DNA of 64,000 nucleotides from Minisyncoccia bacterium (GCA_047639355.1 JBLIOC010000001.1:3215-67214), one strand, 5' to 3'. Shown: positions 11,212 to 29,733, counted from the first letter of the stretch. Made by a program: numbers and translations. The notes: generated by a model not told the origin, from the sequence alone.

Positions 11212-12480
11212 ATGTTCTTCATTGCCGTATTAAACAAATCTAAAATGCTTAAAATTCACACAAAATTTTGTTACCTAGCAATCATTTCAATACTAACGGT
11301 TTTATTCTTTGCAGCTAGTCTTTCATTCATCAACACAGCTAATGCTGGTTCTGCAGACAGTCTGACTGGCTACGCCTGGAGTGATAATATTGGCTGGATA
11401 AGCTTCAATGATACAAATAATTCTGGAACGGTCAATTACGGTGTTGATGTTGCTACCGGGTCGGGTTTATTCTCTGGCTACGCCTGGAGTGATAATATTG
11501 GCTGGATATCCTTTTGGCCTGGTGACGTAATTGGTTGCCCCTCTGGTCCCGGTACTTGTAACCCTACTCTTGACTGGAACACTGGTGTAATTACCGGCTG
11601 GGCTCGTGCTTGTGCTGGAACTGCAGACGCGGCCTGTGCACTTACCTCTTCCCGAACAGACGGCTGGGACGGCTGGATTAGTCTTTCTGGAGTAGCTACC
11701 GATTCTTCAGCTTCAACGTATGGAGTTCTTGTTAATGTTACCACTGGTGCTTTTTCTGGACAAGCTTGGGGTAGCACCAATGTTGGTTGGATTTCGTTTT
11801 CAGGTACAGAAGGTACAGGATGGGGTGTTGATGGTATTCTCCCCCCTGCATCTGCAACCCTTAGTTCAGATCCAGTACCCGGCTGCATCATTCCGAATGG
11901 TGATAGTACTTGCCCTGTAGATTTAACCTGGAGTATACTATTCTCAAGTGACACAAGTGTATACAATTTCTCGCTTGGTACCACAATCTCAACCGTTGCT
12001 GCTGGTACAGAACCTTCTTACCCACTAAACCCTGGAGTAAACGTTATTGAAGCTCGAGACGGTAGTAATATCCTCAGGACTATTACTCCTACTGCTGGCT
12101 GTTCCACACCACTCGATTTCTGGGACAGTGCTGAGTGTGGTACTATACCTACTCTAGATATTACTCCCAGTCTGTCTGCTGGCTCTCAGATAATTAGATC
12201 TGGTGAATCAGCTGATGTAGAAATTGTCATTATTTCAGATTACAATTTAACTTGTCAACTGAATGGAGCAGAAATAACTCCTGTCGATCTTACTTACGAT
12301 TCTGCAACTAGTGAAATCAGAAATAGTTCAAATAGCGCCATACCTGCTACTGGTTACCCTACAAGACAACTTTATTCTAAGCAAGCTATTTCCATTGTTT
12401 GTACAGTCGACGCAGACCCAACTATCTCACTTTCAGGTGAATACATTATTGAGGTGATTGGTACCGTACAGGAGATTTAG
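11212..12480 (+). CDS. Secreted tandem-repeat protein (four GxAWSxNxGWISF repeats plus an Ig-like C-terminal region)
   Basis: Signal peptide with probable cleavage at TANA/GS; the probable start is at the internal Met near 11245. Four repeats of (G)YAWSDNIGWISF / GQAWGSTNVGWISF. An exact 35-nt DNA repeat occurs at 11366-11400 and 11474-11508. Confidence 0.6.
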   Translation: MFFIAVLNKSKMLKIHTKFCYLAIISILTVLFFAASLSFINTANAGSADSLTGYAWSDNIGWISFNDTNNSGTVNYGVDVATGSGLFSGYAWSDNIGWISFWPGDVIGCPSGPGTCNPTLDWNTGVITGWARACAGTADAACALTSSRTDGWDGWISLSGVATDSSASTYGVLVNVTTGAFSGQAWGSTNVGWISFSGTEGTGWGVDGILPPASATLSSDPVPGCIIPNGDSTCPVDLTWSILFSSDTSVYNFSLGTTISTVAAGTEPSYPLNPGVNVIEARDGSNILRTITPTAGCSTPLDFWDSAECGTIPTLDITPSLSAGSQIIRSGESADVEIVIISDYNLTCQLNGAEITPVDLTYDSATSEIRNSSNSAIPATGYPTRQLYSKQAISIVCTVDADPTISLSGEYIIEVIGTVQEI

Positions 12481-13618: not shown

Positions 13619-13691
13619 GGGCTCGTAGCTCATCTGGTAGAGCGCCTCATTTGCACTGAGGAGGTAGCGGGTTCAAGTCCTGTCGAGTCCA
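13619..13691 (+). tRNA. tRNA-Ala (anticodon TGC)
   Basis: Cloverleaf by eye: acceptor stem GGGCTCG/CGAGTCC with a G3:U70 wobble (the Ala identity element). D-arm GCTC-ATCTGGTA-GAGC. Anticodon arm CCTCA-TTTGCAC-TGAGG, giving TGC. T-arm GCGGG-TTCAAGT-CCTGT. Discriminator A; no encoded CCA. Confidence 0.9.
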
Positions 13692-13696
13692 CAATA

Positions 13697-13721
13697 AAAC
13701 AGCCCTCAGGGGCTGTTTTTG
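13697..13721 (+). terminator. Rho-independent terminator after tRNA-Ala
   Basis: Hairpin CAGCCC-tcag-GGGCTG followed by TTTTTG. Confidence 0.7.
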
Positions 13722-13856
13722 TGTGTGGACTCGAAGAAGAGTGCCTGCGCACTCTTCGGCAGGACTTGAACGCCGGAGTGCTGTGAGTCTGCGAACAAGT
13801 GAGGTGTGTCCCGCGGCAACTGCTAGTTTGTGACTGTAGGGAAACGAAATAGCTTG

Positions 13857-13885
13857 GTGACCGTCAGGACAAGTCCTGTCGAGTC
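13857..13885. repeat. Direct repeat of the tRNA-Ala 3' end (copy 1), a putative att-like scar
   Basis: The 16 nt CAAGTCCTGTCGAGTC at 13870-13885 are identical to tRNA positions 13674-13689. Flanking gtgaccgtcaggac resembles copy 2. Confidence 0.6.
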
Positions 13886-13955
13886 TCAAATTGACAATAA
13901 TATTTAGAGGTGGTATTTTCTGTTTAGTTATAGCAATCACTGAGGAGGTGTAGAA

Positions 13956-14180
13956 ATGAAAGATATTAAAATTGTATGGGTGTTACAGGGGATACTTATA
14001 GGTTTTATGATAGGTATTATCTTAATTACTATCAAATCTTACGTGTTCCATTCTGGAATAAGCTCAATATTAACACCTCCATATGGAGAAAATGTGCTTT
14101 TACTTATATCTCAAATACTGATGGCGGCATATTATTATCCACGTGTGTGTCGATTTAAGAGTCGTATAGCAATGTATTAG
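13956..14180 (+). CDS. Small hypothetical membrane protein (74 aa)
   Basis: Single hydrophobic helix. Its first 15 nt (atgaaagatattaaa) are identical to the start of the thioredoxin-like gene at 14803. It is followed by a terminator. It could be a remnant. Confidence 0.35.
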   Translation: MKDIKIVWVLQGILIGFMIGIILITIKSYVFHSGISSILTPPYGENVLLLISQILMAAYYYPRVCRFKSRIAMY

Positions 14181-14197
14181 CTGTAACAGAGTACGCA

Positions 14198-14223
14198 GAA
14201 AAGCTCCCAAGGGAGCTTTTTTT
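14198..14223. terminator. Bidirectional intrinsic terminator
   Basis: AAAAGCTCCC-aa-GGGAGCTTTTTTTT, with an A-tract and a T-tract, between convergent small ORFs. Confidence 0.6.
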
Positions 14224-14411
14224 ATAAGTATCCTAACATCACTGAATAATACTTGCGATCAAGAATATAAAAATTAGTCAGATTAATGCACGTCTGGAAA
14301 GGTCGGTAACAAAAACAAAGACCCAGAAGAGAATCTCCTGGGTCAGTCAATTAAAATCTTGTCTCGCTTTTTTTGCAATAGTCACACAAGTAGTTATATT
14401 AAAGTTTTTTC

Positions 14412-14654
14412 TTAACTTTTTTTGAAAATCATCATAGCTTGGCTCTTTGTAGGTTGCGACAACTTCACCCAAGAGTTTAGTACTTCTGCTTTCTTTCCAG
14501 TGCTTCCACCACGACGTTCACCATGACTTCTCTTTGAAGCAGTTTTTCTATTATTGATCTTTCGGTAAGTCTTAATTATCTCTCCAAGTTCTTGCAACTT
14601 AGGAACTTTTTTGTACACGCACCTCTCCTTTGAGATATGGTTCAAATACTCCAT
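14412..14654 (-). CDS. Small basic hypothetical protein (80 aa)
   Basis: Lys/Arg-rich ORF. Its start abuts tRNA-like repeat copy 2. No recognisable domain. Confidence 0.35.
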   Translation of the reverse strand: MEYLNHISKERCVYKKVPKLQELGEIIKTYRKINNRKTASKRSHGERRGGSTGKKAEVLNSWVKLSQPTKSQAMMIFKKS

Positions 14655-14657
14655 TAG

Positions 14658-14686
14658 TGGCCGTCAAAACAATCCTGTCGAGATGA
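14658..14686. repeat. Direct repeat of the tRNA-Ala 3' end (copy 2, degenerate)
   Basis: gtggccgtcaaaacaatcctgtcgag shares TCCTGTCGAG with the tRNA and the ccgtca...acaa...tcctgtcgag frame with copy 1. Confidence 0.5.
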
Positions 14687-14802
14687 TTTGTAGTAACTCA
14701 TTAATGTTTGATTTAGCTTTGTTTCTACAATTGGGCACAATTCGCAAATACGGACTAGTCAACTGATATAATAAAGTTATATTATTAAACGTGTAGGTTT
14801 AT

Positions 14803-15069
14803 ATGAAAGATATTAAATTAGAAGAAGTATCATCTCCTGGCTGTTCTCACTGTGCAGCTTTCAAGGAGTATTGGGAAGGTGAAGCTATAAACTGGCCCAA
14901 CGTTACCTTTAGAGAGTTGAGTCTCGTGGATCCTGAGGGGCAAGAAATGGTCCAGAAACACCAGATATTTGCTTCTCCAGGCATTATTATTAATGGGGAA
15001 TTGTTTGCTACCGGAGGTGTAGACAAGATCGCCTTCAAGAAGAAACTTCAAGAACTTTCAGAAGAATAA
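14803..15069 (+). CDS. Small thioredoxin/glutaredoxin-fold protein with a CxxC motif
   Basis: 88 aa with SSPGCSHCAAF (CxxC) near the N-terminus. It lies immediately upstream of the CcdA-MCO fusion. Confidence 0.7.
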   Translation: MKDIKLEEVSSPGCSHCAAFKEYWEGEAINWPNVTFRELSLVDPEGQEMVQKHQIFASPGIIINGELFATGGVDKIAFKKKLQELSEE

Positions 15070-15072
15070 AAT

Positions 15073-18000
15073 ATGATTGATACAAAGTCCCCAGCTCCTT
15101 CTACAACTCCAACATCAAAGTCAGCTCGATCTTGGCTTATTATGGCAGCGGTGGGTGTTTTTGCAGCTATTGCTTTCGGTGTTTTATACCTATTCGTTCT
15201 AGCCCCATCCATTCCCGACGGAAATATTGGATGGTTTTTGTTTTCATTTGCGACAGGTCTTACGATGATCGTTATGCCGTGCACACTTCCACTGGCATTT
15301 GTAATCGTTCCTCTGTCTATGGGAAAGGGTCTTATTCGCGGTATCGGAATGTCTCTTGCATTCGGTCTTGGTATAGCTGTCACTCTTTCTCTTTATGGAG
15401 TAGCGGCAGCTCTTCTTGGAGGTGTAGCTATCGACGCTCTTGGTGCTGATCTTGATTCAATTAAAAACTGGGTCTATACAGTCGCTGGTGTCTTTGCTCT
15501 CGTTTTTGCATTGAGTGAAATTGGTTTGATGAATTTTCATATGCCCACATACAAGGGTGCAGCTCCGGCTTCGATACAGAAGCATGGAGAGTTGATAAAA
15601 GCTTTTATGTTGGGGCTTTTCCTTGGAAATGTTGGAGTAGGATGTCCTCATCCAGCTACTCCACTTATTTTGATAGAAATCGCTTCAAGTGGTGACGTGT
15701 TATACGGATGGCTTCTATTCCTGACTCATGCAATCGGCCGAATACTACCGTTGCTTCTATTAGCATTTATGGCAATCATTGGTGTAAATGGACTCAACTG
15801 GCTAATGTCCCGAAAGGATGCTGTTGAACGAACAACCGGCTGGGCAATGGTTTTCGTAGCAGGCTTTATTCTTACTCTAGGATTGTTCTCTCACGATTGG
15901 TGGGTCAATTCTGGAATTCACAGCGGACTTGAGACACTTACGCAAGAAGCTAGGTTCAACGCGCTTATAAACGAAACGCTTGATACCAATGTAGCTCACG
16001 CGCACGGATTAGAAGAAGGGGCTGGTCTATTTGGGTTACCTCTGGAGTGGGGTAATTGGTTCTTAGTGACGGTTTGGCTATTGCCAATGTGGTTATGGTA
16101 TAGAAAAAAGAAGAAGGACATTGAAGAAGGAGCTGACTTGTGTCAGGAAAAAGTCTTAAAGATAAAGAGAAATTTCCTTATTGTGATTGCTATATTTATC
16201 ATAATGATATTCACGCACTTTTTACCACAGAATTTTTACCTGAATTCTATTAGTGGTGGTGGTCACGGTGAAACGACTAGCCACGATGGTGCTGACGGCC
16301 ATCATGATGAAGGTGCATCAGCTAACCCTGACGGTATCCATGCAATGCCAGACGGCACAATCATGAATGCTAATGGAGACGTGCTAAAAGGTGGACATCT
16401 AATGCCGGACGGCACAATCATGCTTGCAGACGGAACGACGATAGGAGGTACTCCTTCGAACATACCTGCAGAAGCAACGCTGTATGGAGTTGATGTAGAA
16501 GATCTTCCGTTTGCTAACGTCCCTGAGACAGTAGAATTGGTAGATGGTGATAGTTATGATATCACTGCATTCTATGTACAGAAAGAGATAGGGAACAGAA
16601 CACTTCGTATGCTCGCATACAACGGCTCGGTTCCTGGACCCTTTATTAAGGCTCCGCAAGGAGCTGAGGTGACAATCAACTTTACGAACAACACAGACTT
16701 GGACCAAACCATCCACTCACACGGTCTACGATTAGACAACAACTTTGATGGAGTACCTGGTGTAACCCAGAATGTTGTTAAGCCTGGAAATTCACACTCT
16801 TATACTATTAAGTTTGAAGATGCCGGGGTTTATTGGTATCACCCACACACTCGTGATGATTACGGACAGGAAATGGGTCTGTACGGTAACTATATTGTAG
16901 AACCAATTGATGGTTACACATCACCAGTTAATCGACAAATTCCACTGGTTATTGATGACATTCTCATTGAGAACGACAAGATCTTTGACTTCTATAAAGA
17001 AATTACAAATTTTGCTTTACTTGGTCGATTCGGAAACGAATATTTGGTAAACGGTGAACAGGATTACTCACTCGAACTAGAGAAAGGTGAAGTTGTAAGG
17101 TTCTTGGTTACAAATGTTTCAAATGCAAGATCGTACAGTCTGTCGCTGCCAGGCGCGGAAATGAAAATGGTCGGTGCTGACATTGGACACTACGAGCGAG
17201 AGGAATTTGCAGAAGATTTCTTGATTTCGCCTTCTGAGAGAATGATTGTAGAAGCTTACTTCAAAGAATCGGGTACTTATTCTTTGACTCACACCACTCC
17301 GGACGGTGAGGTCGTACTTACTGAGTTTGTGGTTGGAGAAGAGTCAGTAGATGAATCATATGCTGAAGAATTCGACATTCTAAACGAAAACCAAGACGTA
17401 ATAGAAGAGTTCAGCACTTTCCGATCATATATTAGTAAAGACGCAGATAAGAAGCTATTACTTACTGTTGACCTAGAAGGACAGGTAGATCATAGTGCCC
17501 ACGGACATGCTACTGATGATGCTGCAGTGGATCCATATGCTGGTATTCATGCAATGCCTAACGGTGACGTTATGCTCGGATCTGGAGAAGTTATAACAGG
17601 TGCTACCGTAATGGATGACGGTACGATTGTCCTTGCTGACGGTACTGTTCCTGGCGCTCCACCTGTTCCAAAGACAAGACTTGAATCACTACAATGGAAT
17701 GACGAAACAATGTCCGACAAGGTAAACACTTCAGAGAATGTTACTTGGAAGATGATCGATGAAGAGACAGGAGCAAGCAGTATGATGATTCCAATAGCTG
17801 ACTGGACTTTCGTAGAGGGAGACATTGTCAAGATCCGATTAACTAATGATTCAACAGCCGATCATGTAATGCAACATCCAATCCACCTACACGGACAACA
17901 ATTTGTTGTTCTGACTGAAAATGGAGAGATTAATGACAATATGGCATGGAAGGACACTGTATTAGTATTCCCTGGTGAAGTCGTTGAAATATTAGTAGAC

Positions 18001-18834
18001 ATGAGCAACTTAGGGGAGTGGATGAGCCACTGTCATATTTCTGAGCACTTGCATGCCGGGATGATGATGCAATTTAGGGTAGAAGATGAATCTGGTTATG
18101 CAACAGGAGATGAATTCAGGTCTACTGTAACGGCTGGAATGGTTCACAAATCAAACGCTCCTACTATAAAGAAAAGCTCACGAGAATTTACCTTTGAGTC
18201 GGAAACTTCATCATTTGGCTACACAGTTTATGCTGAAAAAACCAGGTTCAAAGTAGGTGAAAAACAAGAGATCACACTGACTTTGTTTGATCCTGAGTTA
18301 AATGGTGTTGTGTTGTCTGAGAAGTATCCCGACCCACTTGGAATAACATTTGTGAAGAGTAATAATACTCAGAACTTTTACACTTACCCTGGGAACACAA
18401 CCTTCGATGCCGTCGATCATGGAGGATCAGCTCACGACAATAGTGATGGGCATCACAACGACACGATAGCTCCCTCATCAGAGCCGGTACATGACAACAG
18501 TGACGGGCATCATGGGTTTAATCTAATACCTACAGCTCACGCGCACGGCGGCACAGATGATGGTCACGCAGATGCTACTGGTCAAGTTTACACTTATACT
18601 GTGCCTGTAGCCTTCCCGGAAATTGGTGCGTACAAAGCCTTTGTTGAATTCGTGCCAGAAGGTGTAGATAAGCCGATTATTTTGAGTATGGATATAGAAG
18701 TGATCTCCTCGAACTTCTCAGTAGACAACTATGGTTGGAGCGTAAGTATGAAGTGGTGGATATTACTCATAGCCTCCCTGATCCTGACTGTACCTTTGGT
18801 GATCGGAGTTCGTAAGTACATTAACGTTAAATAA
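15073..18834 (+). CDS. Giant fusion of a CcdA/DsbD-like thiol-disulfide transporter TM domain with a multicopper oxidase, His/Met-rich Cu-binding repeats and a C-terminal TM anchor
   Basis: The N-terminal ~340 aa are polytopic with CcdA-type Cys motifs (IVMPCTLPLAF; GVGCPHPATPL). Multicopper oxidase motifs present: HSHGLR, WYHPHT, HPIHLHGQQF, HCHISEHLHAGMMM. Repeated GIHAMP(D/N)G..M and DNSDGHH segments. Final TM WWILLIASLILTVPLVIGV. Confidence 0.8.
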   Translation: MIDTKSPAPSTTPTSKSARSWLIMAAVGVFAAIAFGVLYLFVLAPSIPDGNIGWFLFSFATGLTMIVMPCTLPLAFVIVPLSMGKGLIRGIGMSLAFGLGIAVTLSLYGVAAALLGGVAIDALGADLDSIKNWVYTVAGVFALVFALSEIGLMNFHMPTYKGAAPASIQKHGELIKAFMLGLFLGNVGVGCPHPATPLILIEIASSGDVLYGWLLFLTHAIGRILPLLLLAFMAIIGVNGLNWLMSRKDAVERTTGWAMVFVAGFILTLGLFSHDWWVNSGIHSGLETLTQEARFNALINETLDTNVAHAHGLEEGAGLFGLPLEWGNWFLVTVWLLPMWLWYRKKKKDIEEGADLCQEKVLKIKRNFLIVIAIFIIMIFTHFLPQNFYLNSISGGGHGETTSHDGADGHHDEGASANPDGIHAMPDGTIMNANGDVLKGGHLMPDGTIMLADGTTIGGTPSNIPAEATLYGVDVEDLPFANVPETVELVDGDSYDITAFYVQKEIGNRTLRMLAYNGSVPGPFIKAPQGAEVTINFTNNTDLDQTIHSHGLRLDNNFDGVPGVTQNVVKPGNSHSYTIKFEDAGVYWYHPHTRDDYGQEMGLYGNYIVEPIDGYTSPVNRQIPLVIDDILIENDKIFDFYKEITNFALLGRFGNEYLVNGEQDYSLELEKGEVVRFLVTNVSNARSYSLSLPGAEMKMVGADIGHYEREEFAEDFLISPSERMIVEAYFKESGTYSLTHTTPDGEVVLTEFVVGEESVDESYAEEFDILNENQDVIEEFSTFRSYISKDADKKLLLTVDLEGQVDHSAHGHATDDAAVDPYAGIHAMPNGDVMLGSGEVITGATVMDDGTIVLADGTVPGAPPVPKTRLESLQWNDETMSDKVNTSENVTWKMIDEETGASSMMIPIADWTFVEGDIVKIRLTNDSTADHVMQHPIHLHGQQFVVLTENGEINDNMAWKDTVLVFPGEVVEILVDMSNLGEWMSHCHISEHLHAGMMMQFRVEDESGYATGDEFRSTVTAGMVHKSNAPTIKKSSREFTFESETSSFGYTVYAEKTRFKVGEKQEITLTLFDPELNGVVLSEKYPDPLGITFVKSNNTQNFYTYPGNTTFDAVDHGGSAHDNSDGHHNDTIAPSSEPVHDNSDGHHGFNLIPTAHAHGGTDDGHADATGQVYTYTVPVAFPEIGAYKAFVEFVPEGVDKPIILSMDIEVISSNFSVDNYGWSVSMKWWILLIASLILTVPLVIGVRKYINVK

Positions 18835-18835
18835 T

Positions 18836-19333
18836 ATGAATAAGTTTGCAGTTCTTGGGATCGTACTAGTACTCATCTTAGTTGGTGGGGTAGCTTACAA
18901 GCAGCTTGTCGGTAGTGCTGACGCGCCAGTTGAGACAGGGATAGTGAAAGAATACACAATTATTTCTAAGAAACTTGAGTGGAGATTTGAACCGGAATCT
19001 ATCGAGGTCGAGCAAGGAGACAGAATTATCGCAACAGTTATCAACGAAGATAATTTTGATCACGGTTTTGCTATTGACGCCTTCGGTATTAGTCAAAGAC
19101 TTCCGGCTAACGGGACGATTGTAGTGGAGTTCGTAGCGACTAAGTCTGGAGAGTTTCCTTTCTACTGTTCTGTTTCCTGTAGTAGTAGTGATAACCCCAC
19201 TTTTGATTTACTAAATGGCGAAGTGCAGACTGGTCCATACGCAGGCACATTTCAGGGTCACTTCGAACACGTAGGTAGGTTTGTTGTTAAAATGTTGCTA
19301 ACGGCAGGGATTCTGAACGAAGAAGAAAATTAG
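18836..19333 (+). CDS. Membrane-anchored cupredoxin-like (CuA-type?) protein
   Basis: N-terminal TM helix, beta-rich domain with HGFAIDAFG ... FYCSVSC ... H..M spacing reminiscent of CuA/cupredoxin ligands. Its position in the copper cluster supports the call. Confidence 0.45.
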   Translation: MNKFAVLGIVLVLILVGGVAYKQLVGSADAPVETGIVKEYTIISKKLEWRFEPESIEVEQGDRIIATVINEDNFDHGFAIDAFGISQRLPANGTIVVEFVATKSGEFPFYCSVSCSSSDNPTFDLLNGEVQTGPYAGTFQGHFEHVGRFVVKMLLTAGILNEEEN

Positions 19334-19368: not shown

Positions 19369-21729
19369 ATGACAAAACTCGTACTTAAAGTAAAAGGGAT
19401 GCATTGCGCTTCTTGTTCGATACTTATAGACAAATTGCTTAAGAAACAAGAGGGTGTAATTAATTCTGCAACAAGTTACGGAGCTCAGAAAGTAGCTTTA
19501 GAATTTGATGAATCAATAATTACACTTGAAAAAATTGATGAGTTTGTAAACAAGCTTGGTTATGACGTCATCCGACCTGACGAGGACACTGGTTCATTAG
19601 AAGAAGCAGAAGCTGCTGAAGAAAAGGAACGTTTGGTTGCAAAGAAGAGAGTTATTGCTTCGTTTGCAATAGCGTCACCAATCATTGCCTACTACATGGG
19701 TGTTCACATGTTCAACTTACCTCACATTCACCAACTGTGGGGGATTGATCTTAACTACTTCTATTGGGCTCTTTCGACTCCTATTCAATTTGTAATAGGG
19801 TGGACATTCTACAGAAATGCTTGGGCGGCTGTGCGTATTGGCTCTGCTAATATGGACGTACTCGTAGTATTAGGAACTAGTGCTGCTTACTTCTACAGTA
19901 TGATCGGTTTCTTGTGGTTCAACATCGATCATCCTTTCTGGGAGAGTTCCGCCGCACTTATTTCATTTATTCTTCTTGGACGCTACGTGGAAGTAGTGGC
20001 TAAAGGCAAGGCTAGTAGTGCCATCAAGGAACTACTTAAACTTGAAGCAAAGGAAGCTAATGTCATTCGAGATGGCACTGAAGTCACTATCCCACTAAGC
20101 GACCTTGTCGAAGGTGATGTTATTGTAGTGAAGCCGGGAGGTAAGATTCCAGTTGATGGAATTATCGTTGATGGGGAAACTCATATTGATGAAAAGGTTG
20201 TTACAGGTGAATCGTTTCCAGTTAAAAGAGTTAAAGGAGATGAGGTTATTGGAGCAACCGTAAACTTAGAAGGAAGATTTAAATTTAGAGCAACAAAAGT
20301 TGGTAAAGACACACTGCTCAATCAGATCATAACCATGGTTGAGGAAGCTCAAGCTTCACGTGCTCCGGTTCAAGACTTGGTAGATAAGGTAAGTGAGTAC
20401 TTTGTACCCGCTGTAATTGTTATTTCTGTAATTACTTTTGTCGGCTGGGTATTCATTGCAGAACTACCAGTTAGAGCCGGAGTTCTAAGAATGATTGCCG
20501 TATTGGTTATCTCATGCCCGTGCGCCATGGGACTTGCTACACCAACCGCTTTAGTTGTAGGTATTGGACAAGCTGCAAAATATGGAATTATCCTCAAAGG
20601 AGGAGAGGCTTTGGAGAAAGCTTACAAGATTACAGCCATCTGCTTAGATAAAACAGGGACACTAACAATCGGAAAGCCAATCGTTACAGACTTCGTTCTT
20701 GTATCTAAAATGACAGAGTCTGATGCCTCCATTCTCGCAGCGTCAGCTGAAATGGGGTCTGAACACCCACTAGCTCGAGCCGTGATAGAGCATGCAAAGG
20801 ACTTTGGAAAGACTACGGAACCTAAAAACTTCGAAGCTGTTCAAGGTATGGGTCTAAAAGCAACGATAAAACTTAAAGGTAAGGATCATCAGGTTGCAAT
20901 TGGAAATCCTAAGTTTATGGAGAAACTTAAAAAAGACATAACTTCATATAAATCAGAATTAGATAGACTACAATCAGAGGCAAAAACAACTGTATTCCTA
21001 GTTGTAGATGGCAAGATAGTTGCTTTGATAGCAATGGCTGATGCATTAAAGCCTTTTGCAAAAGAAGCAATCACAGCTATGCGTAACATGAACAAGGAGG
21101 TTATCATGATTACTGGTGACAACCAAAAAACGGCTGACGCTATAGCTAAAGAAGTTGGTATTGAGAGGGTGCTTGCAGAAGTATTACCACAAGACAAAGC
21201 AGCAATGGTGAAAAAGTTGCAAAGTGAGGGAATGAATGTTGCGATGGTAGGGGATGGTATAAATGACTCACCAGCGCTAGCTCAGTCGAATCTAGGTATA
21301 GCAATTGGTTCAGGTACAGACGTAGCGATAGAGACTGGAGATGTTGTTCTTGTTAAAGATGACTTAAGAGACGTAGTTACTGCAATACAGCTTTCTAGTA
21401 AGACAATCAAGAAAATTTGGCAGAACTTGTTTTGGGCATTCTTCTACAACGTTGCAGCAATCCCTATTGCAGCTGGTGGTCATTTATTGTTTACTCAAGA
21501 ATCGTTTGGTATTGCAGCTGGGTGGGTGGTAGCTATACAAGATAAGTTTGGTTCAGCTGGACAGATTTTCTTCAACCTTTCACAAGCGACACTACGTCCA
21601 GAAATTGCCGGGTTTGCAATGGCGTTTAGCTCGGTATCAGTGGTTGTAAACTCGATGGTACTGCGGTTGTACACACCACCAATGGAAAAACTATCAAACG
21701 CTCAAGATAAAAAAAAGCAAGTCAAATAA
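19369..21729 (+). CDS. copA: Copper-translocating P1B-type ATPase
   Basis: N-terminal HMA domain (GMHCASCS), TM CPC motif (SCPCAMGLATP), DKTGTLT phosphorylation site, hinge GDGINDSPAL. Confidence 0.93.
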   Translation: MTKLVLKVKGMHCASCSILIDKLLKKQEGVINSATSYGAQKVALEFDESIITLEKIDEFVNKLGYDVIRPDEDTGSLEEAEAAEEKERLVAKKRVIASFAIASPIIAYYMGVHMFNLPHIHQLWGIDLNYFYWALSTPIQFVIGWTFYRNAWAAVRIGSANMDVLVVLGTSAAYFYSMIGFLWFNIDHPFWESSAALISFILLGRYVEVVAKGKASSAIKELLKLEAKEANVIRDGTEVTIPLSDLVEGDVIVVKPGGKIPVDGIIVDGETHIDEKVVTGESFPVKRVKGDEVIGATVNLEGRFKFRATKVGKDTLLNQIITMVEEAQASRAPVQDLVDKVSEYFVPAVIVISVITFVGWVFIAELPVRAGVLRMIAVLVISCPCAMGLATPTALVVGIGQAAKYGIILKGGEALEKAYKITAICLDKTGTLTIGKPIVTDFVLVSKMTESDASILAASAEMGSEHPLARAVIEHAKDFGKTTEPKNFEAVQGMGLKATIKLKGKDHQVAIGNPKFMEKLKKDITSYKSELDRLQSEAKTTVFLVVDGKIVALIAMADALKPFAKEAITAMRNMNKEVIMITGDNQKTADAIAKEVGIERVLAEVLPQDKAAMVKKLQSEGMNVAMVGDGINDSPALAQSNLGIAIGSGTDVAIETGDVVLVKDDLRDVVTAIQLSSKTIKKIWQNLFWAFFYNVAAIPIAAGGHLLFTQESFGIAAGWVVAIQDKFGSAGQIFFNLSQATLRPEIAGFAMAFSSVSVVVNSMVLRLYTPPMEKLSNAQDKKKQVK

Positions 21730-22038: not shown

Positions 22039-22557
22039 ATGGATATTTTCACCTTACTTATTATTGGTCACCTGGTTGGGACTGTTTTAGGAGTCGGTGG
22101 AGCAACGATGATTGAGTTTCATCTAAATAAAGCTTTGAGTGACGGAAATATGTCTTTGGACGAACGTAGTATGCTCGGTCTAAACTTTGTAGTTTTGAGG
22201 ATAGGTTTAGTTTTAGCTTTAGTAACCGGCTTTGGTTTTCTTGTGTATTACGTCACACATGGTCAAGCGTTCCGTCTTCAAAACCCTGTGCTATGGGCAA
22301 AACTGTTTATGGTTGTGATTGTTGGTGTAAATGCTCTGTTACTTCAATCACATAAGATTGGGTTGTACTGGGGGAGCGCTCTATCATTTGTTACTTGGTG
22401 GGCGACCATGATTTTAGGAATATTCTTAACCAACAACGTCCGGTTTGATTTTATTACAATAATGATTGGTTACTTACTAGCAGTTGTGGCCGGAGCATTT
22501 ATACTCCACAAGATACGCGATTACGTTAAATTAAGATATAAAGCGAAAAATGCCTGA
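22039..22557 (+). CDS. Small polytopic membrane protein, paralog A
   Basis: 172 aa with 4-5 TM helices. Clear similarity to the ORF at 24339-24860: LGVGGATMIEF ... DERSMLGLNFVVLRIGLVLALVTG versus LGVGSSTLAIV ... ETERRMMGVVYVVLRVATLMILLTTG. Confidence 0.6.
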   Translation: MDIFTLLIIGHLVGTVLGVGGATMIEFHLNKALSDGNMSLDERSMLGLNFVVLRIGLVLALVTGFGFLVYYVTHGQAFRLQNPVLWAKLFMVVIVGVNALLLQSHKIGLYWGSALSFVTWWATMILGIFLTNNVRFDFITIMIGYLLAVVAGAFILHKIRDYVKLRYKAKNA

Positions 22558-24338: not shown

Positions 24339-24860
24339 ATGACACTTTTTATTACTCTAGTTGCAATCTTGCAGCCATTTTCAATTTCACTTGGGGTTGG
24401 TTCCTCTACCTTAGCTATTGTAAATTTTTTCGTGACTATTGCAGATGGAGCTATAGATGAAACAGAACGAAGGATGATGGGAGTTGTTTACGTCGTACTG
24501 CGCGTAGCAACGTTGATGATCCTCCTTACTACTGGTGCACTAGTCTCAATTGAGTTTACAAACGGAGGCATCGTTGGATTCTCTACTATTATTTACGCAC
24601 AACTACTAACTCTCATTATGCTGTTTGTAAATGCTTCACTTATGACTGCTCGAGTGATGCCCAGCACCTATGGTCCAGCATTGCAGGCAGGGAGCTGGTA
24701 TACACTAGGCACACTTTCAGCATTACAGATTGTTGGGATTGTAAACTTTAGTTTCTTAAACTTCTTGTTTGGATATATTACTTGGCTGATATTAGCAGTT
24801 GCAATAGTAAATGGGATCATGTCAGTTCTAGCTGCTAGAAGAAAAGGAAAGTTACATTAA
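24339..24860 (+). CDS. Small polytopic membrane protein, paralog B
   Basis: 173 aa, homologous to the ORF at 22039-22557 (see that entry). Confidence 0.6.
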   Translation: MTLFITLVAILQPFSISLGVGSSTLAIVNFFVTIADGAIDETERRMMGVVYVVLRVATLMILLTTGALVSIEFTNGGIVGFSTIIYAQLLTLIMLFVNASLMTARVMPSTYGPALQAGSWYTLGTLSALQIVGIVNFSFLNFLFGYITWLILAVAIVNGIMSVLAARRKGKLH

Positions 24861-24908: not shown

Positions 24909-27900
24909 TTATTTTTCCACTTCTCCTGGTCGTCGACTGTATGTGATTGGGATAAGTACTAGGGTAATTATTACTGAGAATACTAATCCAAACATCACTG
25001 AATACGCAAGGGGAGCCCATAGATCTCCTGCATAGGTAAGAGGTACCATGCCGAACACTGTAGTGATGGTTGTCAGCAGAATCGGTCGTAGGCGGTTTGC
25101 TGCTGCATCTAATACAACTTCTCTCACTGGCTTACTCGGATTTGCTTTTCGCATTTTGTTCATCATGTCTATCAAGAGGATAGAGTTATTTACTACAATT
25201 CCAGACAGAGCTATGAATCCCATCATTGAAGGGAAAGAAAGTGTGCTTTGTGTAATCGCAAGACCTGACAAAATACCAATCAATGAGTACGGCAAAATAG
25301 AAAGCACGTACCGCATGTGCAAGTAGGAGTTAAATTGTAAAGTAAGAATACAGACCATCAATGCGATGCCGACAATTAACGCCAAGCCCATTTCGATGAA
25401 CGCCCGGTTTGAATCTTCTGTTTCACCACCACCCGTACTGATTATTACATCAGCTGGTACATTAAGCTCTTCTTCAATTTGAACCAATGCTGCTGCTTGG
25501 ATTTCTCGAGCATTTCCCTGCGCGGAAGCATCAGCTGATATTGTCACCACCCGCTTGCTGTCCTCGTGATTAATGACCGAACTAGACTCTCTTAAAGCAA
25601 CTGTTGCTAATGTTGAAAGTGGTACCTGTCCAGACTGAGTAGGGATTATTATCGAACTCAACGCATTTATTGATGTAATTTTCGTACTTTCTGCTGTTGG
25701 ATTATCTACGTTGTCTACGTTTAATTTAACAATCACATCAATGTCTTCATCGAGAGTAGTGAGTGAAGTCGCTTCTGTCCCAAAGAGGGCAGTACGGGCG
25801 ATCTGTGAGACTACTAGAGGACTAACACCGAGTGCAGCTGCTTTATCTCTATTTAGTTCTAGTACGAACTCAGTACTGTTGTTATTAGTACTCGTTTCAA
25901 CATTAACGGTGTTTGAGATATTTTTGAAGATTTTTGCTACACCATTTGCTAAGGTAGTAAGTTCTGTAAGATCATCACCCAAGAACTTTACTATGATCGC
26001 TGCTCCGGTCGGAGGACCATCACTTGGCTGATTGACAGTGACTTTGATGTCATTTAAGACTAAAAACTTTCGTCTCAAGTCGTCAACAATTACTGTACTA
26101 GTACGTTCACGCTCAAGATCAAGGTTTACAAAGATATTGGCAAACTTTTCACCGGTACCCCCAGATCCAAACTGACTACCACTTCCAACTGTGACAGTAA
26201 ATGAGTCAATCTCTGATTCTGCATATAGAATTTCCTCTACACGCCTAACGGAAATATCGGTCACTTCTTTAGTCGTCCCCTCAGGCTCTTCAATTTCAAT
26301 GATAACGAAATCGATATTGCTTTGTTCGAAAAAGATAACCTTTACTAGACTAGTAGAAGGGAGAAGTATTCCTGCTACAAACACAGACAACATGATAGTA
26401 ATGATTGTGGTTGGAATCCAAGCAAGCTTTCTCTTAAAGTCTGACCACCCTCGTTTTTTCTTAATAGTATGTGATTTGAGTGATACAAAGTATACAAGTG
26501 GTGCTGCAATAAGACCTGCGAAGACATTGACTGGAAGGAAGATAGAGAACAGAAGTAGTGAAAAGATGGCGGAAAGGAATTTATTCTCCCTGTCTTGATT
26601 ACCAACAATTAATTCCATTTTGCCTCGGTACCAATCGGCGAACTTGTTTGCAAACACTGCTTGTTTTTCTTCAAGTACTGATTCGTTTCTCCGCTTTAAG
26701 AACGTAGAGGCAATCAAAGGCAAAATAGCAAGTGCCACAAAGAGTGATGCAAAGAGTAGGAAGATAAGTGTAAATGGAATACTGGCAATAAATTGTCCTG
26801 TTACTCCTGACACAATAAAAAGACCAACGAACATCGATACGGTAGTGAGTGTACCGGCAATAAGTGGTGCTTTGAATTCTCGAATGGTGGTAATAGCCGC
26901 TTCTCGTTTGTCTATAGTTGGTTCGTCTTTCATTTTCTTGTTGATACCTTCAATCATCACAATTGCCGAGTCCACAAGAATTCCAATACCGAGAATAAGT
27001 GAAAACAGACTCAGGAAGTTAATTGTATTGCCTGAAAAGTACAAACCAATAAACCCAAACAAAAATGAAAGGGGAATAGCCGCTCCAGCCAGTAACCCCT
27101 CTCTCCAGCCGATCGCGAGCATTAGAAGCAACACCACTAGGATGACTGTCTGCAAACCAGATGTGGATAGCTGTACAAGATCATTTCTTATGTCCTTTCC
27201 CGCATCTAATACTGTTACTGCAGTGACTCCATCAAGTAGCTCATCTTGAACACTTAGTGCAGTTACGCGCTTATTTACTGCTGCTGCAATAGTTGTGATG
27301 TCTCCACCAGATTGCTTATATACGTTTATAGTTACTGAGTTTAGAGAGGGTTCTCCATCAACACTTAGTCTTGAAAGTAATGTGGATACAGCTAAGCCAT
27401 CTTCTACTGTAGCTAAGTCTTTAATATAAATTGGTTGTCCTCCTCGATTTGTAATACCAATATTTTTGATTTGTGTTGAGTCCTCGATGTCTCCTTCAAA
27501 GGCGACGTTGTATGAAACTCCGTTGTTTACAATCTGTCCGATTGGAAAAGTAAGATTGGCACTTGAGATTGCATTAGTTATTTCAGATAGTGAAATGTTA
27601 AACCGTTGTAGTGACACCTGGTCTACGATCACTGTTACTTCTCGGTCACGAATACCACTAAGCTCAACACGTGATACTCCAGCAACAGATTCAAGCTCGC
27701 GCTGAACATCGTCGGACAACTGGGTGAACGCAAAGTCTGAGATGTCAGCTGAAAGCGCAATGGTAAGGATTGGTTGATTTACAAAATCAACTTCCAAGAC
27801 AACAGGCTCTGTTGCATCGGTTGGTAAATCTGTCTTTATCTTATCAACCTGGTCTTTGAGGTCTGCGATTGATTTGTCTAGATCTGCACTGGCATCAAAT

Positions 27901-28175
27901 TCAATCATTACACTTGACACACTCTCGCGCGAAGTTGAAGTAATCTTTTTTACGTTTTCTAGACTCGTTAATCCACGCTCTATCTCGTTAGTAATGAGAG
28001 ATTCTATATCTGCAGCCGGCGCACCGGGCAAAGAAATTGAGACTACTCCAATCGGCACTACCACTTCTGGTGCTGATTCTTTTGGAATAGAGATGAGACT
28101 GTAGCTACCGATGCCAATCAAGGCTATGAGGAATAAGTAGGCGAACTTACTGTTTTTTATGAAGAATTCCCACAT
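24909..28175 (-). CDS. RND-family efflux transporter (AcrB/CusA/CzcA-like inner-membrane pump)
   Basis: 1088 aa with 12 TM helices, two large extracytoplasmic loops and an AcrB-like N-terminus (MWEFFIKNSKFAYLFLIALIGIGSYSL). Confidence 0.9.
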   Translation of the reverse strand: MWEFFIKNSKFAYLFLIALIGIGSYSLISIPKESAPEVVVPIGVVSISLPGAPAADIESLITNEIERGLTSLENVKKITSTSRESVSSVMIEFDASADLDKSIADLKDQVDKIKTDLPTDATEPVVLEVDFVNQPILTIALSADISDFAFTQLSDDVQRELESVAGVSRVELSGIRDREVTVIVDQVSLQRFNISLSEITNAISSANLTFPIGQIVNNGVSYNVAFEGDIEDSTQIKNIGITNRGGQPIYIKDLATVEDGLAVSTLLSRLSVDGEPSLNSVTINVYKQSGGDITTIAAAVNKRVTALSVQDELLDGVTAVTVLDAGKDIRNDLVQLSTSGLQTVILVVLLLMLAIGWREGLLAGAAIPLSFLFGFIGLYFSGNTINFLSLFSLILGIGILVDSAIVMIEGINKKMKDEPTIDKREAAITTIREFKAPLIAGTLTTVSMFVGLFIVSGVTGQFIASIPFTLIFLLFASLFVALAILPLIASTFLKRRNESVLEEKQAVFANKFADWYRGKMELIVGNQDRENKFLSAIFSLLLFSIFLPVNVFAGLIAAPLVYFVSLKSHTIKKKRGWSDFKRKLAWIPTTIITIMLSVFVAGILLPSTSLVKVIFFEQSNIDFVIIEIEEPEGTTKEVTDISVRRVEEILYAESEIDSFTVTVGSGSQFGSGGTGEKFANIFVNLDLERERTSTVIVDDLRRKFLVLNDIKVTVNQPSDGPPTGAAIIVKFLGDDLTELTTLANGVAKIFKNISNTVNVETSTNNNSTEFVLELNRDKAAALGVSPLVVSQIARTALFGTEATSLTTLDEDIDVIVKLNVDNVDNPTAESTKITSINALSSIIIPTQSGQVPLSTLATVALRESSSVINHEDSKRVVTISADASAQGNAREIQAAALVQIEEELNVPADVIISTGGGETEDSNRAFIEMGLALIVGIALMVCILTLQFNSYLHMRYVLSILPYSLIGILSGLAITQSTLSFPSMMGFIALSGIVVNNSILLIDMMNKMRKANPSKPVREVVLDAAANRLRPILLTTITTVFGMVPLTYAGDLWAPLAYSVMFGLVFSVIITLVLIPITYSRRPGEVEK

Positions 28176-28179
28176 AAGA

Positions 28180-29733
28180 TTATTCGCTAACTTCTACTTC
28201 GTCTCCTTCGACTAAGCCCCGTGCATCAATAACGAAAGCATCATCTTTTGCAATACCTTTCATTACTTCAACAGAGCCTCCAAGAATATTACCCAGAGAA
28301 ACAGATTTACTTACTAATTTGCCATCTTCTACAATAAATACAGAGCCGTTACTTCGGTCAAACTTCACGGCAGTGAGTGGTACCTGGATGGTGTCAGTAG
28401 ATGTTATCTCAGCATCAAACTGCTTTGTTATCCGGACGGTGTCACCGTTTGTCAGATTTGCATCTTCTGTTGCAATTCTAACTTCAGTCTTCCTGGTAAC
28501 AGAATCCACCGCTGGTGCGATTTCTGTGACTGTTCCGACAATTGTTCCTTCCACTAATACTGAATCTCCTTTAGCTAAAAGATTTTTTTCCGAGTCACTA
28601 ATATAGGTGATTACTTCCAACGCATTGTTGTTGGCTACTATAGCTACTTCTGCAAAAGAATTAATGAAGTCACCGGTTCGGATAGGCAGAGCATTTACTG
28701 TTCCACTGATTGGTGTTCGTAAAATAGTTTTTGCTAGGTTAGCTTGTGCTGCCCCAAGGGCTCCAAGTGCTTGTTTTACTTGAGCATCAGCAACAGATAT
28801 GACTCCACCGACAGCCGCTAGTTCAGCACGACGTACTCCGTCAGCAGATGACGAAAGACCAGTTAATGAAGTATCAAGGCTAGATTGTGTTTCGATTAAA
28901 GTTGATCGTAAATTTGTAAAAGAATTACTAAAACCTTGCAATTCAGTATCAGTATATCGTTTTGAATTATCATGTTGATTAAAAATTTCCAGAAATGTAT
29001 CTATGAAATTAATTGTGCGCTCAACATTTTGCTTTGCATAACCTAACTCTGTTTCTAAGTTAGAGTTGCTAGATATTACGTTGACTTGATTTTGCCATGT
29101 TGGTAAAAGTGTTTGATAAGCAACTCGTTCATCATTTAATTCACTCGTAAAACCTCTCCCACTTATTCGTAAGCCAGGAATTCTACTATTAGGATTTGCA
29201 AAAAAGGAATCAATTGAATTTACTACTACCCCGTTAGTTGTGTTGTAGGCAGACTTAAATGCTGAAACAGCCGTGTCTTGTGTTCGTTTTAGTGAATTTT
29301 TTGCTTCGTCTAAACCAACTCCACTTTGGGCTGCTGCAGCGACCGCAGCGTCATATATTCCTTCTGCTTGAAGTACAGAAGCACGTTCAGAGGCATTTTC
29401 AAGTGTTGCAAGAATTGTGCCGGCAGGTATTTGCTGACCTAGATTGACGTTCACAGCAGTCAAGCTCCCAGCTCGTTCAGAAGTAACTTCAGCTTCGGAG
29501 AATGCGCGTACATTTCCAATCAAAGAAATTGACTGACCCCCAGAATATTTTATGGGTGTAGTTAGGGTCACTATTGGCTTTTGTTGGACAACCAAGTCAT
29601 TTTTTGCAATAGGGTCACCTTTTAAAATCACTATTAACACAACGATTCCCAAAAAAACCACAGCTCCGTGTATTGTTTTACGGTTAATAAATAATTTAAG
29701 TCGTTCTGTTATTTTCATAAGATTTTGTTTCAA
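28180..29733 (-). CDS. Efflux periplasmic adaptor (membrane fusion protein, HlyD/RND-MFP family)
   Basis: 517 aa: N-terminal TM anchor, long coiled-coil, and barrel-sandwich/beta-barrel C-terminus. The stop is 5 nt from the start of the RND gene. Confidence 0.85.
   Translation of the reverse strand: MKQNLMKITERLKLFINRKTIHGAVVFLGIVVLIVILKGDPIAKNDLVVQQKPIVTLTTPIKYSGGQSISLIGNVRAFSEAEVTSERAGSLTAVNVNLGQQIPAGTILATLENASERASVLQAEGIYDAAVAAAAQSGVGLDEAKNSLKRTQDTAVSAFKSAYNTTNGVVVNSIDSFFANPNSRIPGLRISGRGFTSELNDERVAYQTLLPTWQNQVNVISSNSNLETELGYAKQNVERTINFIDTFLEIFNQHDNSKRYTDTELQGFSNSFTNLRSTLIETQSSLDTSLTGLSSSADGVRRAELAAVGGVISVADAQVKQALGALGAAQANLAKTILRTPISGTVNALPIRTGDFINSFAEVAIVANNNALEVITYISDSEKNLLAKGDSVLVEGTIVGTVTEIAPAVDSVTRKTEVRIATEDANLTNGDTVRITKQFDAEITSTDTIQVPLTAVKFDRSNGSVFIVEDGKLVSKSVSLGNILGGSVEVMKGIAKDDAFVIDARGLVEGDEVEVSE

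Follow-up and report, generated by a model that had tools for sequence, protein, structure and literature searches.

Fusion of a multicopper oxidase with a CcdA-like membrane module in a copper gene cassette of Paceibacteria

DsbD, CcdA, and ScsB take electrons from cytoplasmic thioredoxin through two membrane cysteines, and two reductant transporters of this family, ScsB (with ScsC and ScsD) and DsbD (cutA2), are genetically linked to copper stress (PMC3322552, PMC10907172). Here, we describe a gene of a Minisyncoccia bacterium that joins a CcdA-like transmembrane (TM) module to a three-domain multicopper oxidase (MCO). The gene lies in a stretch of 64,000 nucleotides (GCA_047639355.1, JBLIOC010000001.1:3215-67214; hereafter, the window) and follows a gene for an 88-residue protein of the Thioredoxin_3 family (Trx_3). 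We give about an even chance to the reading that it is a single-polypeptide version of a Paceibacteria-specific copper cassette, in which a thioredoxin-fed conduit of reductant serves copper proteins at the cell surface.

The membrane module shares with CcdA (PF02683; R. capsulatus and B. subtilis) the Pfam match, a six-TM core, cysteines in TM1 (PCxxP) and TM4, the absence of alpha and gamma domains in the periplasm, and a gene for a cytoplasmic partner with a thioredoxin fold. It differs in the extra TM helices that flank the core, in an invariant external histidine cluster, in its fusion to copper proteins, in a dedicated Thioredoxin_3 protein as presumed donor in place of the housekeeping TrxA, and in the lack of an exported thioredoxin-fold acceptor. 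The canonical TM4 motif of CcdA is PCxxP, whereas that of the module is GCP(H/N)P. No cytochrome c maturation genes were found in the cassette or elsewhere in the window. ScsB, which has alpha and gamma domains, acts as the reductant of ScsC and ScsD, two exported thioredoxin-like proteins. The fusion, in contrast, showed neither domain in Pfam and NCBIfam scans and has no exported thioredoxin-like neighbours; it is joined to an oxidase or to an immunoglobulin (Ig)-like domain, and it occurs in Patescibacteria within a CopA/CopZ/cupredoxin operon. With CueO and PcoA, the oxidase part has in common three cupredoxin domains, the full type 1 (T1) and trinuclear copper ligands, His/Met-rich segments, and co-occurrence with CopA, but it has no Tat signal, forms a doubly tethered extracytoplasmic loop, scores below the equivalog level, and has few Met residues in its inserts. 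The CopRS regulon of C. glutamicum includes a copper-induced operon (cg3286-cg3289) with a secreted MCO gene, copO, and a thiol-redox gene, tlpA (PMC3140484). These are separate genes without a CcdA, and the paper calls tlpA simply thioredoxin-like (PMC3140484). Judging by its name, the TlpA of C. glutamicum would be exported, whereas Trx_3 is cytoplasmic. Our literature search found no description of a CcdA/DsbD-MCO fusion and no relevant paper connecting Patescibacteria, Parcubacteria, or the candidate phyla radiation (CPR) with multicopper oxidases or copper, which agrees with the original prediction, made from the sequence of the window, that this architecture had not been characterised.

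ORF calling reproduced both open reading frames (ORFs) of that prediction and the 3-nt gap between them (Table 1). Its domain composition was also borne out, because profile scans placed all four families of the 1253-residue protein above their gathering scores: DsbD_TM (PF02683) at residues 57-234 (42.5 bits, cut-off 27.1), Cu-oxidase_3 at 510-611 (103 bits), Cu-oxidase at 655-740 (39 bits), and Cu-oxidase_2 at 907-1006 (109 bits). The 88-residue protein matched Thioredoxin_3 (PF13192) with 28.2 bits (cut-off 24.8). The CcdA-type cysteine motifs (PCTLP from residue 69, GCP from 190), the four copper-site motifs (HSHG from 548, WYHPH from 588, HPIHLHG from 935, and HCHISEHLHAGM from 986), the two DNSDGHH repeats (1122 and 1141), and the C-terminal TM helix (1228-1246) are present as predicted. 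GIHAMPDGTIM, reported as occurring twice, is found exactly only once (residue 421), with the variants HLMPDGTIM (442) and GIHAMPNGDVM (824); the first two lie in the linker, the sequence of which is poorly conserved. The fusion protein contains four cysteines: C70 in TM1, C191 in TM4, the non-conserved C357 in a cytoplasmic loop, and C987, which is the T1 copper ligand.

The same architecture recurs widely. Among 5.8 billion proteins searched, approximately 90 protein clusters combine PF02683 with Cu-oxidase domains (42-87% identity, mostly 1000-1400 residues). They were drawn from NCBI, JGI, ENA, and Logan assemblies, and all named clusters belong to Paceibacteria, Parcubacteria, or Patescibacteria. 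The further CcdA-MCO fusions that an architecture search was expected to reveal therefore exist, and their uninterrupted architecture in independent assemblies shows a real fusion with no frameshift or assembly join. An alignment of 72 full-length homologues shows no variation at C70, C191, C987, or the tabulated copper ligands (H548, H550, H938, H986, H988, H992, and M997); the membrane module is more conserved than any other segment, and conservation runs on across the junction between the module and the MCO. A scan with one genome per species identified 197 genomes with a relative of the module. We fetched 88 loci and analysed 80 species-level loci. These 80 stand closest to the query, and MCO fusions are therefore over-represented among them; in 12 of the 80, the ORF is longer than 900 residues. 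In the databases, the protein of the window carries the name 'suppressor of ftsI' and is assigned to a metagenome-assembled genome (MAG) of Candidatus Paceibacteria, although a look-up by exact sequence gave no record of it. The domain pair already appears in automatic annotation ('FtsP/CotA-like multicopper oxidase.../cytochrome c biogenesis protein CcdA'). All related genomes are MAGs. Two contigs with fusion copies of 62-85% identity, JBLHGD010000007.1 (L010) and JBLIMJ010000027.1 (L015), are deposited under Azotimanducaceae and Acidimicrobiales MAGs, and many related contigs bear the label 'Saccharibacteria'. These labels are probably binning or labelling errors, with L010 and L015 being mis-binned Paceibacteria contigs.

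The module is composed of TM0, the six-TM core similar to DsbD_TM/CcdA, TM7, a Lys-rich cytoplasmic loop, and TM8, and its AlphaFold2 model is all-helical (predicted local distance difference test score, 83.9). It has nine TM helices rather than six and reaches approximately residue 392 (nt 16248), beyond the boundary near nt 16100 that had been proposed for the CcdA part. C70 (PCTLP) and C191 (GCPHP), conserved in 72 of 72 full-length homologues, are likewise invariant in all 38 module sequences, and distant family members carry GCPNP in place of GCPHP at TM4. A P1B-ATPase-like CPx metal site at the 'CPH' sequence was considered and rejected because His193 is replaced by Asn in distant members that contain the cysteines. 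In the outer loop between TM6 and TM7, H274, H283, H309, and H311 are invariant within the motifs HDWWVNSGIH and AHAHG; H219 is a further conserved residue specific to the family. The cysteines and the outer histidines vary together among 42 full-length representative clusters, in a correlation that ignores phylogeny: at least two of the four histidines are present in 28 of the 34 module representatives with both cysteines (all four in 21), and no more than one in each of the six Cys-less representatives. The nearest NCBIfam models, DsbD (41.9 bits) and TsoB (41.6 bits), are both far under their cut-offs and indicate similarity only. The Pfam threshold and the TM1 and TM4 cysteines speak for the CcdA class, within which the module belongs to a sharply divergent branch of the DsbD superfamily.

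Degenerate relatives of the module also occur. Two paralogues of approximately 440-455 residues that lack both the cysteines and the His cluster, L089:4138-5505 (P0252) and L090:714-2042 (P0261), lie outside copper operons and near a DsbB gene, which a weak Thioredoxin-family gene precedes in L089 only. Directly upstream of the Cys-less module of L089 is a Trx_3 gene with an intact CVSC, and L090 has none upstream. Another protein, P0356, has a degenerate Cys-less module that is still fused to an MCO.

Hydropathy analysis indicated ten TM helices in the fusion protein, with approximately 840 extracytoplasmic residues between TM8 and the C-terminal anchor. Across the 72 homologues, each predicted cytoplasmic loop carries two or three Lys/Arg residues, whereas the predicted external loops carry none or one and are net acidic. 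Because the positive-inside rule holds for every loop, the oxidase faces outward, and the N-terminus of the CcdA core is also outside, which matches the requirement inferred from the domain order of DsbD (PMC3322552). The MCO and the CcdA cysteines had been expected to face the same side; the outward location of the MCO holds, but C70 and C191 lie in the middle of the membrane, on neither face. In unfused versions, TM8 is the signal-anchor of the partner protein: separate partner genes start with an anchor helix, FVYYLPxRF, which is equivalent to TM8.

The upstream Trx_3 contains the sequence PGCSHC at residues 12-17, with its CxxC at residues 14-17, and the cis-Pro motif IFASPGI. In 75 orthologues, PGCxxC, WPNV, and IFASPGI are conserved, and 70 of the 76 loci that have room for it show a Trx_3 gene directly upstream in the same orientation. 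Because the protein has neither a signal peptide nor a hydrophobic N-terminus, it is cytoplasmic, and we presume that it donates electrons to the module. It had been taken for an extracytoplasmic client of the conduit, a role that is ruled out by the missing signal peptide.

The oxidase part has the full set of T1, T2, and T3 ligand motifs and is assigned to the three-domain MCOs by its three Cu-oxidase domains, four His-rich motifs, and T1 Cys and Met; a His/Met-rich insert (residues ~800-870) precedes domain 3. Its PDB sequence matches include a bacterial laccase (4f7k, 1e-45) and CueO (~1e-31). CueO and CopA-type oxidases are the nearest NCBIfam models, both below cut-off, and the score against the CueO equivalog NF008205 was 151 bits, compared with a cut-off of 525. 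There is no Tat signal or signal peptide on the MCO, which follows TM8, so that the ten-TM protein tethers it at both ends. A Met-rich lid was not recognised, as the inserts are His/Asp-rich with only 4-5 Met. Cuprous-oxidase activity is therefore suggested by the genomic context. The T1 ligand C987 is the sole cysteine in the MCO and the C-terminal domain, and the same is true of every separate partner MCO. The MCO therefore cannot be a thiol-disulfide substrate of the module, and the idea of the original prediction that the conduit maintains the redox state of the fused oxidase is not supported.

The C-terminal Ig-like domain matched no Pfam family even at E<=1, and a PDB sequence search with it gave nothing. 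AlphaFold2 predicts a beta-sandwich into which a disordered His-rich segment is inserted (two copies of DNSDGHH, and AHAHGG), and the closest structural match is the copper-resistance protein CrdA. In MCO-less paralogues (e.g., residues ~590-800 of P0098, compared with 18109-18753 in the window), the Ig-like domain contains a conserved MHLxxIKDDLxEYVHTHPG sequence, which likely forms a metal site. At these columns, all MCO fusions have xxTFVKSDxxxxxxTYPG; the His residues of the Ig-like domain were lost upon insertion of the oxidase.

The order of the conserved cassette is Trx_3, a DoxX-like gene in some loci, the CcdA-like module with or without the MCO and the His-rich Ig-like domain, cupredoxin, CopA, and CopZ. 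Cupredoxin, CopA, and CopZ follow the fusion directly in the window, which supports the copper context that had been proposed. Among the 80 loci, cupredoxin is present in 71, CopA in 63, CopZ in 54, and a fused MCO in 16. The MCO is thus an optional insert, and the constants are Trx_3, the module, cupredoxin, and CopA/CopZ; the module is hard-wired to a putative cuprous oxidase in a subset of loci but not in the cassette as a whole. With the module alone as query, hundreds of Patescibacteria proteins were retrieved (55-77% identity). In many genomes, it is a stand-alone gene of approximately 350 residues that ends after TM7. Other size classes are ~510 residues, 650-870 residues with an anchor and one or two Ig-like domains that carry His motifs, and ~1250 residues with the MCO. 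In at least nine loci, the module and the Ig-like domain are encoded by separate genes; in several loci, the module gene neighbours one for an Ig-like protein of ~400 residues. In P0281, the fusion is permuted, with the Ig-like domains N-terminal to the module. Loci L005 and L006 have a minimal arrangement of Trx_3, a 358-residue module, and a separate two-domain MCO, the start of which overlaps the stop of the module gene. The ORF of the window thus unites the members of a conserved gene pair in a Rosetta-stone fusion. A DoxX-like four-TM gene of ~130-147 residues, which is not present in the window, lies between Trx_3 and the module in 50 of the 88 fetched loci (e.g., L064:7583-8005, L066:7574-7963, and L033:7613-8038; Pfam DoxX/DoxD only at E=0.04), and in P0257 it is fused (residues 1-~115) to the N-terminus of the module.

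Table 1. Features of the fusion gene and the neighbouring copper genes (coordinates in the window)
Feature	Coordinates	Strand	Evidence
Thioredoxin-fold protein (Thioredoxin_3), 88 aa, cytoplasmic, presumed electron donor	14803..15069	+	Pfam PF13192
Fusion protein, 1253 aa: CcdA-like module, linker, three-domain MCO, Ig-like domain, TM anchor	15073..18834	+	
Membrane module, aa 1-392	15073..16248	+	Pfam DsbD_TM, hydropathy, loop charges, AlphaFold2
TM1 motif PCTLP with Cys70	15277..15291	+	Homologue alignments
TM4 motif GCPHPATP with Cys191	15640..15663	+	Homologue alignments
TM6-TM7 loop with His cluster, predicted extracytoplasmic	15889..16047	+	Invariant columns; net-negative loop
Acidic His/Met-rich low-complexity linker	16249..16512	+	Composition, motifs
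Three-domain multicopper oxidase	16513..18108	+	Pfam, NCBIfam, PDB, ligand conservation
C-terminal Ig-like beta-sandwich domain with disordered His-rich insert	18109..18753	+	
C-terminal TM anchor, then basic tail RKYINVK	18754..18810	+	
CuA-like cupredoxin, 165 aa, membrane-anchored	18836..19333	+	Pfam Cupredoxin_1, PDB, orthologues
CopA-type P1B copper ATPase with N-terminal HMA domain	19369..21729	+	TIGR01511, 587 bits
CopZ-like HMA copper chaperone, 71 aa	21821..22036	+	Pfam/NCBIfam
172-aa membrane protein	22039..22557	+	Weak DUF2214, E=3.6e-5, below gathering score

The start codon of the cupredoxin gene lies 1 nt after the stop codon of the fusion. Its conserved residues in 74 orthologues are H76, C111-x3-C115, and H142. 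The Cys pair is 99% conserved and is the only conserved pair among the presumed extracytoplasmic proteins of the cassette. PDB matches include nitrosocyanin (1e-9), the CuA domain of T. thermophilus (2.6e-8), and NosZ (3e-5), and the two cysteines align with those that bind CuA in NosZ and in subunit II of cytochrome oxidase. The binuclear CuA site (H...C-x3-C-x3-H-x2-M) is incomplete: SSSDNPTF stands at the place of the distal H-x2-M, and the conserved His is located 27 residues further on. The protein shares with the TlpA-dependent CuA and Sco proteins a cupredoxin fold with a metal-binding Cys pair that needs reduction, but the distal His/Met found in true CuA is missing. In ScoI and CoxB, TlpA brings the Cys pairs into the reduced state ahead of metallation. 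We favour an external location of the cupredoxin by homology to its extracytoplasmic relatives, which we take to be exclusively so. CupA of S. pneumoniae is also a membrane-anchored cupredoxin encoded beside copA. It faces the cytoplasm and partners a cupredoxin-type domain of CopA, whereas CopA here has an HMA domain and is accompanied by CopZ. A CupA equivalent was rejected because the similarity is non-significant (E=0.36).

From these observations, we propose the following route. The cytoplasmic Trx_3 would reduce the membrane pair C70/C191, and the module would pass reductant through the membrane to its external face, where fused or adjacently encoded copper-handling proteins would use it. 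The most conservative candidate for the acceptor is the CxxxC of the adjacent cupredoxin, which, outside the cell in oxidising and copper-laden surroundings, could bind Cu(I) only if it stayed reduced. CopZ and CopA would move Cu(I) out of the cell, and the fused MCO, tethered to the membrane at both ends and equipped with His/Met-rich arms, would oxidise Cu(I) to Cu(II). The route has parallels in DsbD-DsbC and ScsB-ScsC under copper stress (PMC3322552, PMC10907172), in the part played by TlpA in CuA assembly, and in the copO-tlpA operon of C. glutamicum (PMC3140484). The DsbB genes in the related genomes (L089 and L090) imply an oxidising envelope, in which a reductive counter-pathway would be needed.

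Several observations weigh against this thioredoxin-to-cupredoxin relay. Every characterised member of the DsbD family gives electrons to a thioredoxin-fold acceptor (PMC3322552), and no exported thioredoxin-like ORF with a CxxC was found in the conserved cassette or in the 64-kb window. A profile of the module retrieved 551 matches at E<=1e-3 from 1.84 billion representative proteins (99 at E<=1e-30), which are too few to cover the bulk of mainstream CcdA/DsbD. Searches of PDB sequences with the module, either as a single sequence or as a profile, yielded no solved CcdA, nor did fold searches, and Foldseek of the module model against the PDB gave nothing significant. The Cys-less relatives described above include one that is fused to an MCO (P0356) and one beside a CxxC-containing Trx_3 (L089). 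The orientation of the cupredoxin is ambiguous by its flanking charges. In the loci and protein matches examined, the module is fused to the Cys-free MCO or Ig-like domains and never to the cupredoxin, and L005 and L006 have neither CopA nor cupredoxin nearby, with no cupredoxin within 7 kb. Because the branch is divergent, no exported thioredoxin-fold acceptor is encoded nearby, and the outer His cluster is invariant, the chemistry of the module may differ from that of canonical CcdA.

These features could also mean that copper itself is the substrate of the module, an unlikely reading. The Cys pair and the outer histidines would form a thioredoxin-fuelled cupric reductase or a Cu(I)-handling site, at which copper on the fused His/Met-rich arms and the Ig-like domain would be reduced or loaded; the Sec-exported MCO and cupredoxin would thereby be metallated with Cu(I). 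The absence of a thioredoxin-fold acceptor from the cassette and the window would then be expected, as would the joining of the module to Cys-free, His/Met-rich copper-binding domains, or its location beside them, rather than to a thiol protein. The four invariant outer histidines, the structural match of the Ig-like domain to CrdA, and the minimal trio of L005 and L006, which does without a cupredoxin, point the same way. The co-variation of histidines with cysteines fits as well, although it ignores phylogeny and the Cys-less proteins may be a single clade. CupA provides an in vitro precedent for thiol-based Cu(II) reduction (PMC7558416), but direct action on metal ions is known for no member of the DsbD superfamily. 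H193 of 'CPH' gives way to Asn in distant members, and the reduction of Cu(II) next to a Cu(II)-making oxidase appears futile for detoxification.

On an extended form of this reading, the fusion would be a copper-mediated thioredoxin:O2 oxidoreductase, in which the module acts as a transmembrane cupric reductase and the fused MCO re-oxidises Cu(I) with O2. We regard this as rather improbable. If true, it would provide a surface route for O2 scavenging or electron disposal, or a self-metallating oxidase; to our knowledge, CPR bacteria lack a respiratory chain.

The proposed thiol relay might serve the biogenesis of cuproproteins rather than detoxification, although the likelihood of this seems fairly remote. 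CopA would then be a CopA2/CcoI-like supplier of Cu(I), the MCO, and NirK in some genomes, would be the client, and the cupredoxin would act as a chaperone through its thiols, which the module would keep reduced as TlpA does in ScoI and CoxB. The cupredoxin is CuA-derived and has retained its Cys pair, L033 and L035 have NirK-like genes next to the cassette, and an MCO exported unfolded within a membrane protein must be metallated outside. TlpA figures alongside the copper chaperones ScoI and PcuC in the literature on CuA assembly (PMC6669012). On the other hand, CopZ, CopA, and an MCO are the classic gene set of detoxification (PMC7558416), and 64 of the 80 cassettes have no fused MCO, and most have no adjacent cuproenzyme either. 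As detoxification and cuproprotein maturation are indistinguishable from sequence, the detoxification role assigned to the fusion in the original prediction is not retained as a specific claim.

A structural role, in which the module is mainly an anchor or scaffold for surface copper proteins and its cysteines are structural or belong to an unrelated thiol pathway, is very improbable. P0356, with its MCO on a degenerate Cys-less module, would fit such a role, and the conservation of the FVYYLPxRF helix on separate partners suggests docking within the membrane. However, a mere anchor would not surpass the rest of the protein in conservation or hold invariant Cys, Pro, and His residues, nor would a dedicated thioredoxin gene be kept in 70 of 76 loci, and the fusion already has its own C-terminal anchor. 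Finally, an assembly or frameshift artefact that merges two genes, as might be suspected from genomes in which the module and the MCO are separate, is refuted because some 90 distinct clusters from four sources share one unbroken architecture, conserved sequence spans the junction, ORFs longer than 900 residues recur among the species-level loci, and the cysteine and copper-ligand positions are invariant in the 72 homologues.

With the relay from Trx_3 to external copper proteins as the preferred reading, the locus suggests that the tiny Paceibacteria wire cytoplasmic reducing power to copper-handling proteins on their surface. A branch of the DsbD superfamily that apparently has no thioredoxin-fold acceptor and is covalently joined to Cys-free copper proteins keeps a private cytoplasmic thioredoxin. 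The fusion is thereby a Rosetta-stone clue to a coupling of thiol redox and copper at the cell surface, and it offers a tractable single-polypeptide system for a CcdA-type conduit that may act on a non-thioredoxin substrate or on a metal. It also points to a conserved envelope copper system in Paceibacteria/CPR, a lineage of little-known physiology, in which at least 197 species-level genomes carry the module. In present annotation, these genes wrongly bear the names 'suppressor of ftsI' or 'cytochrome c biogenesis protein'.

Other genes were noted near the cassette in related loci and in the window. In L033 (4169-5296, minus strand) and L035 (5197-6426), genes for NirK-like two-domain copper proteins (375-409 residues, one Cys each) lie a few kb away from the cassette, which hints at a link to cuproenzyme supply. 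The 172-residue DUF2214-like gene follows CopZ in 11 closely related loci and is a possible accessory member of the cassette. Its product is paralogous (27% identity) to another membrane protein of the window, encoded at 24339-24860, and homologues of both are found in the ~10-11 closest loci. Upstream of the operon, approximately 1.1 kb (13693-14802) following a tRNA-Ala gene (13619-13692) contains no convincing gene. An 80-residue basic ORF on the minus strand (14412-14654) diverges from the operon start and is followed by a strong terminator-like hairpin with an 11-bp stem (14344-14320); none of the 88 related loci has a homologue of this ORF, which may be spurious or may code for a small regulator. 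A secreted protein of 422 residues (11212-12480) has three copies of GYAWS(D/T)N(I/V)GWISF and 11 Cys, and matches no Pfam family. Close to the copper operon, the minus strand encodes a 1088-residue AcrB/RND-family transporter (24909-28175; ACR_tran, 556 bits), preceded by the gene for a 517-residue membrane-anchored protein (28180-29733, minus strand), so that an RND pump occurs here in a presumably single-membrane CPR bacterium.

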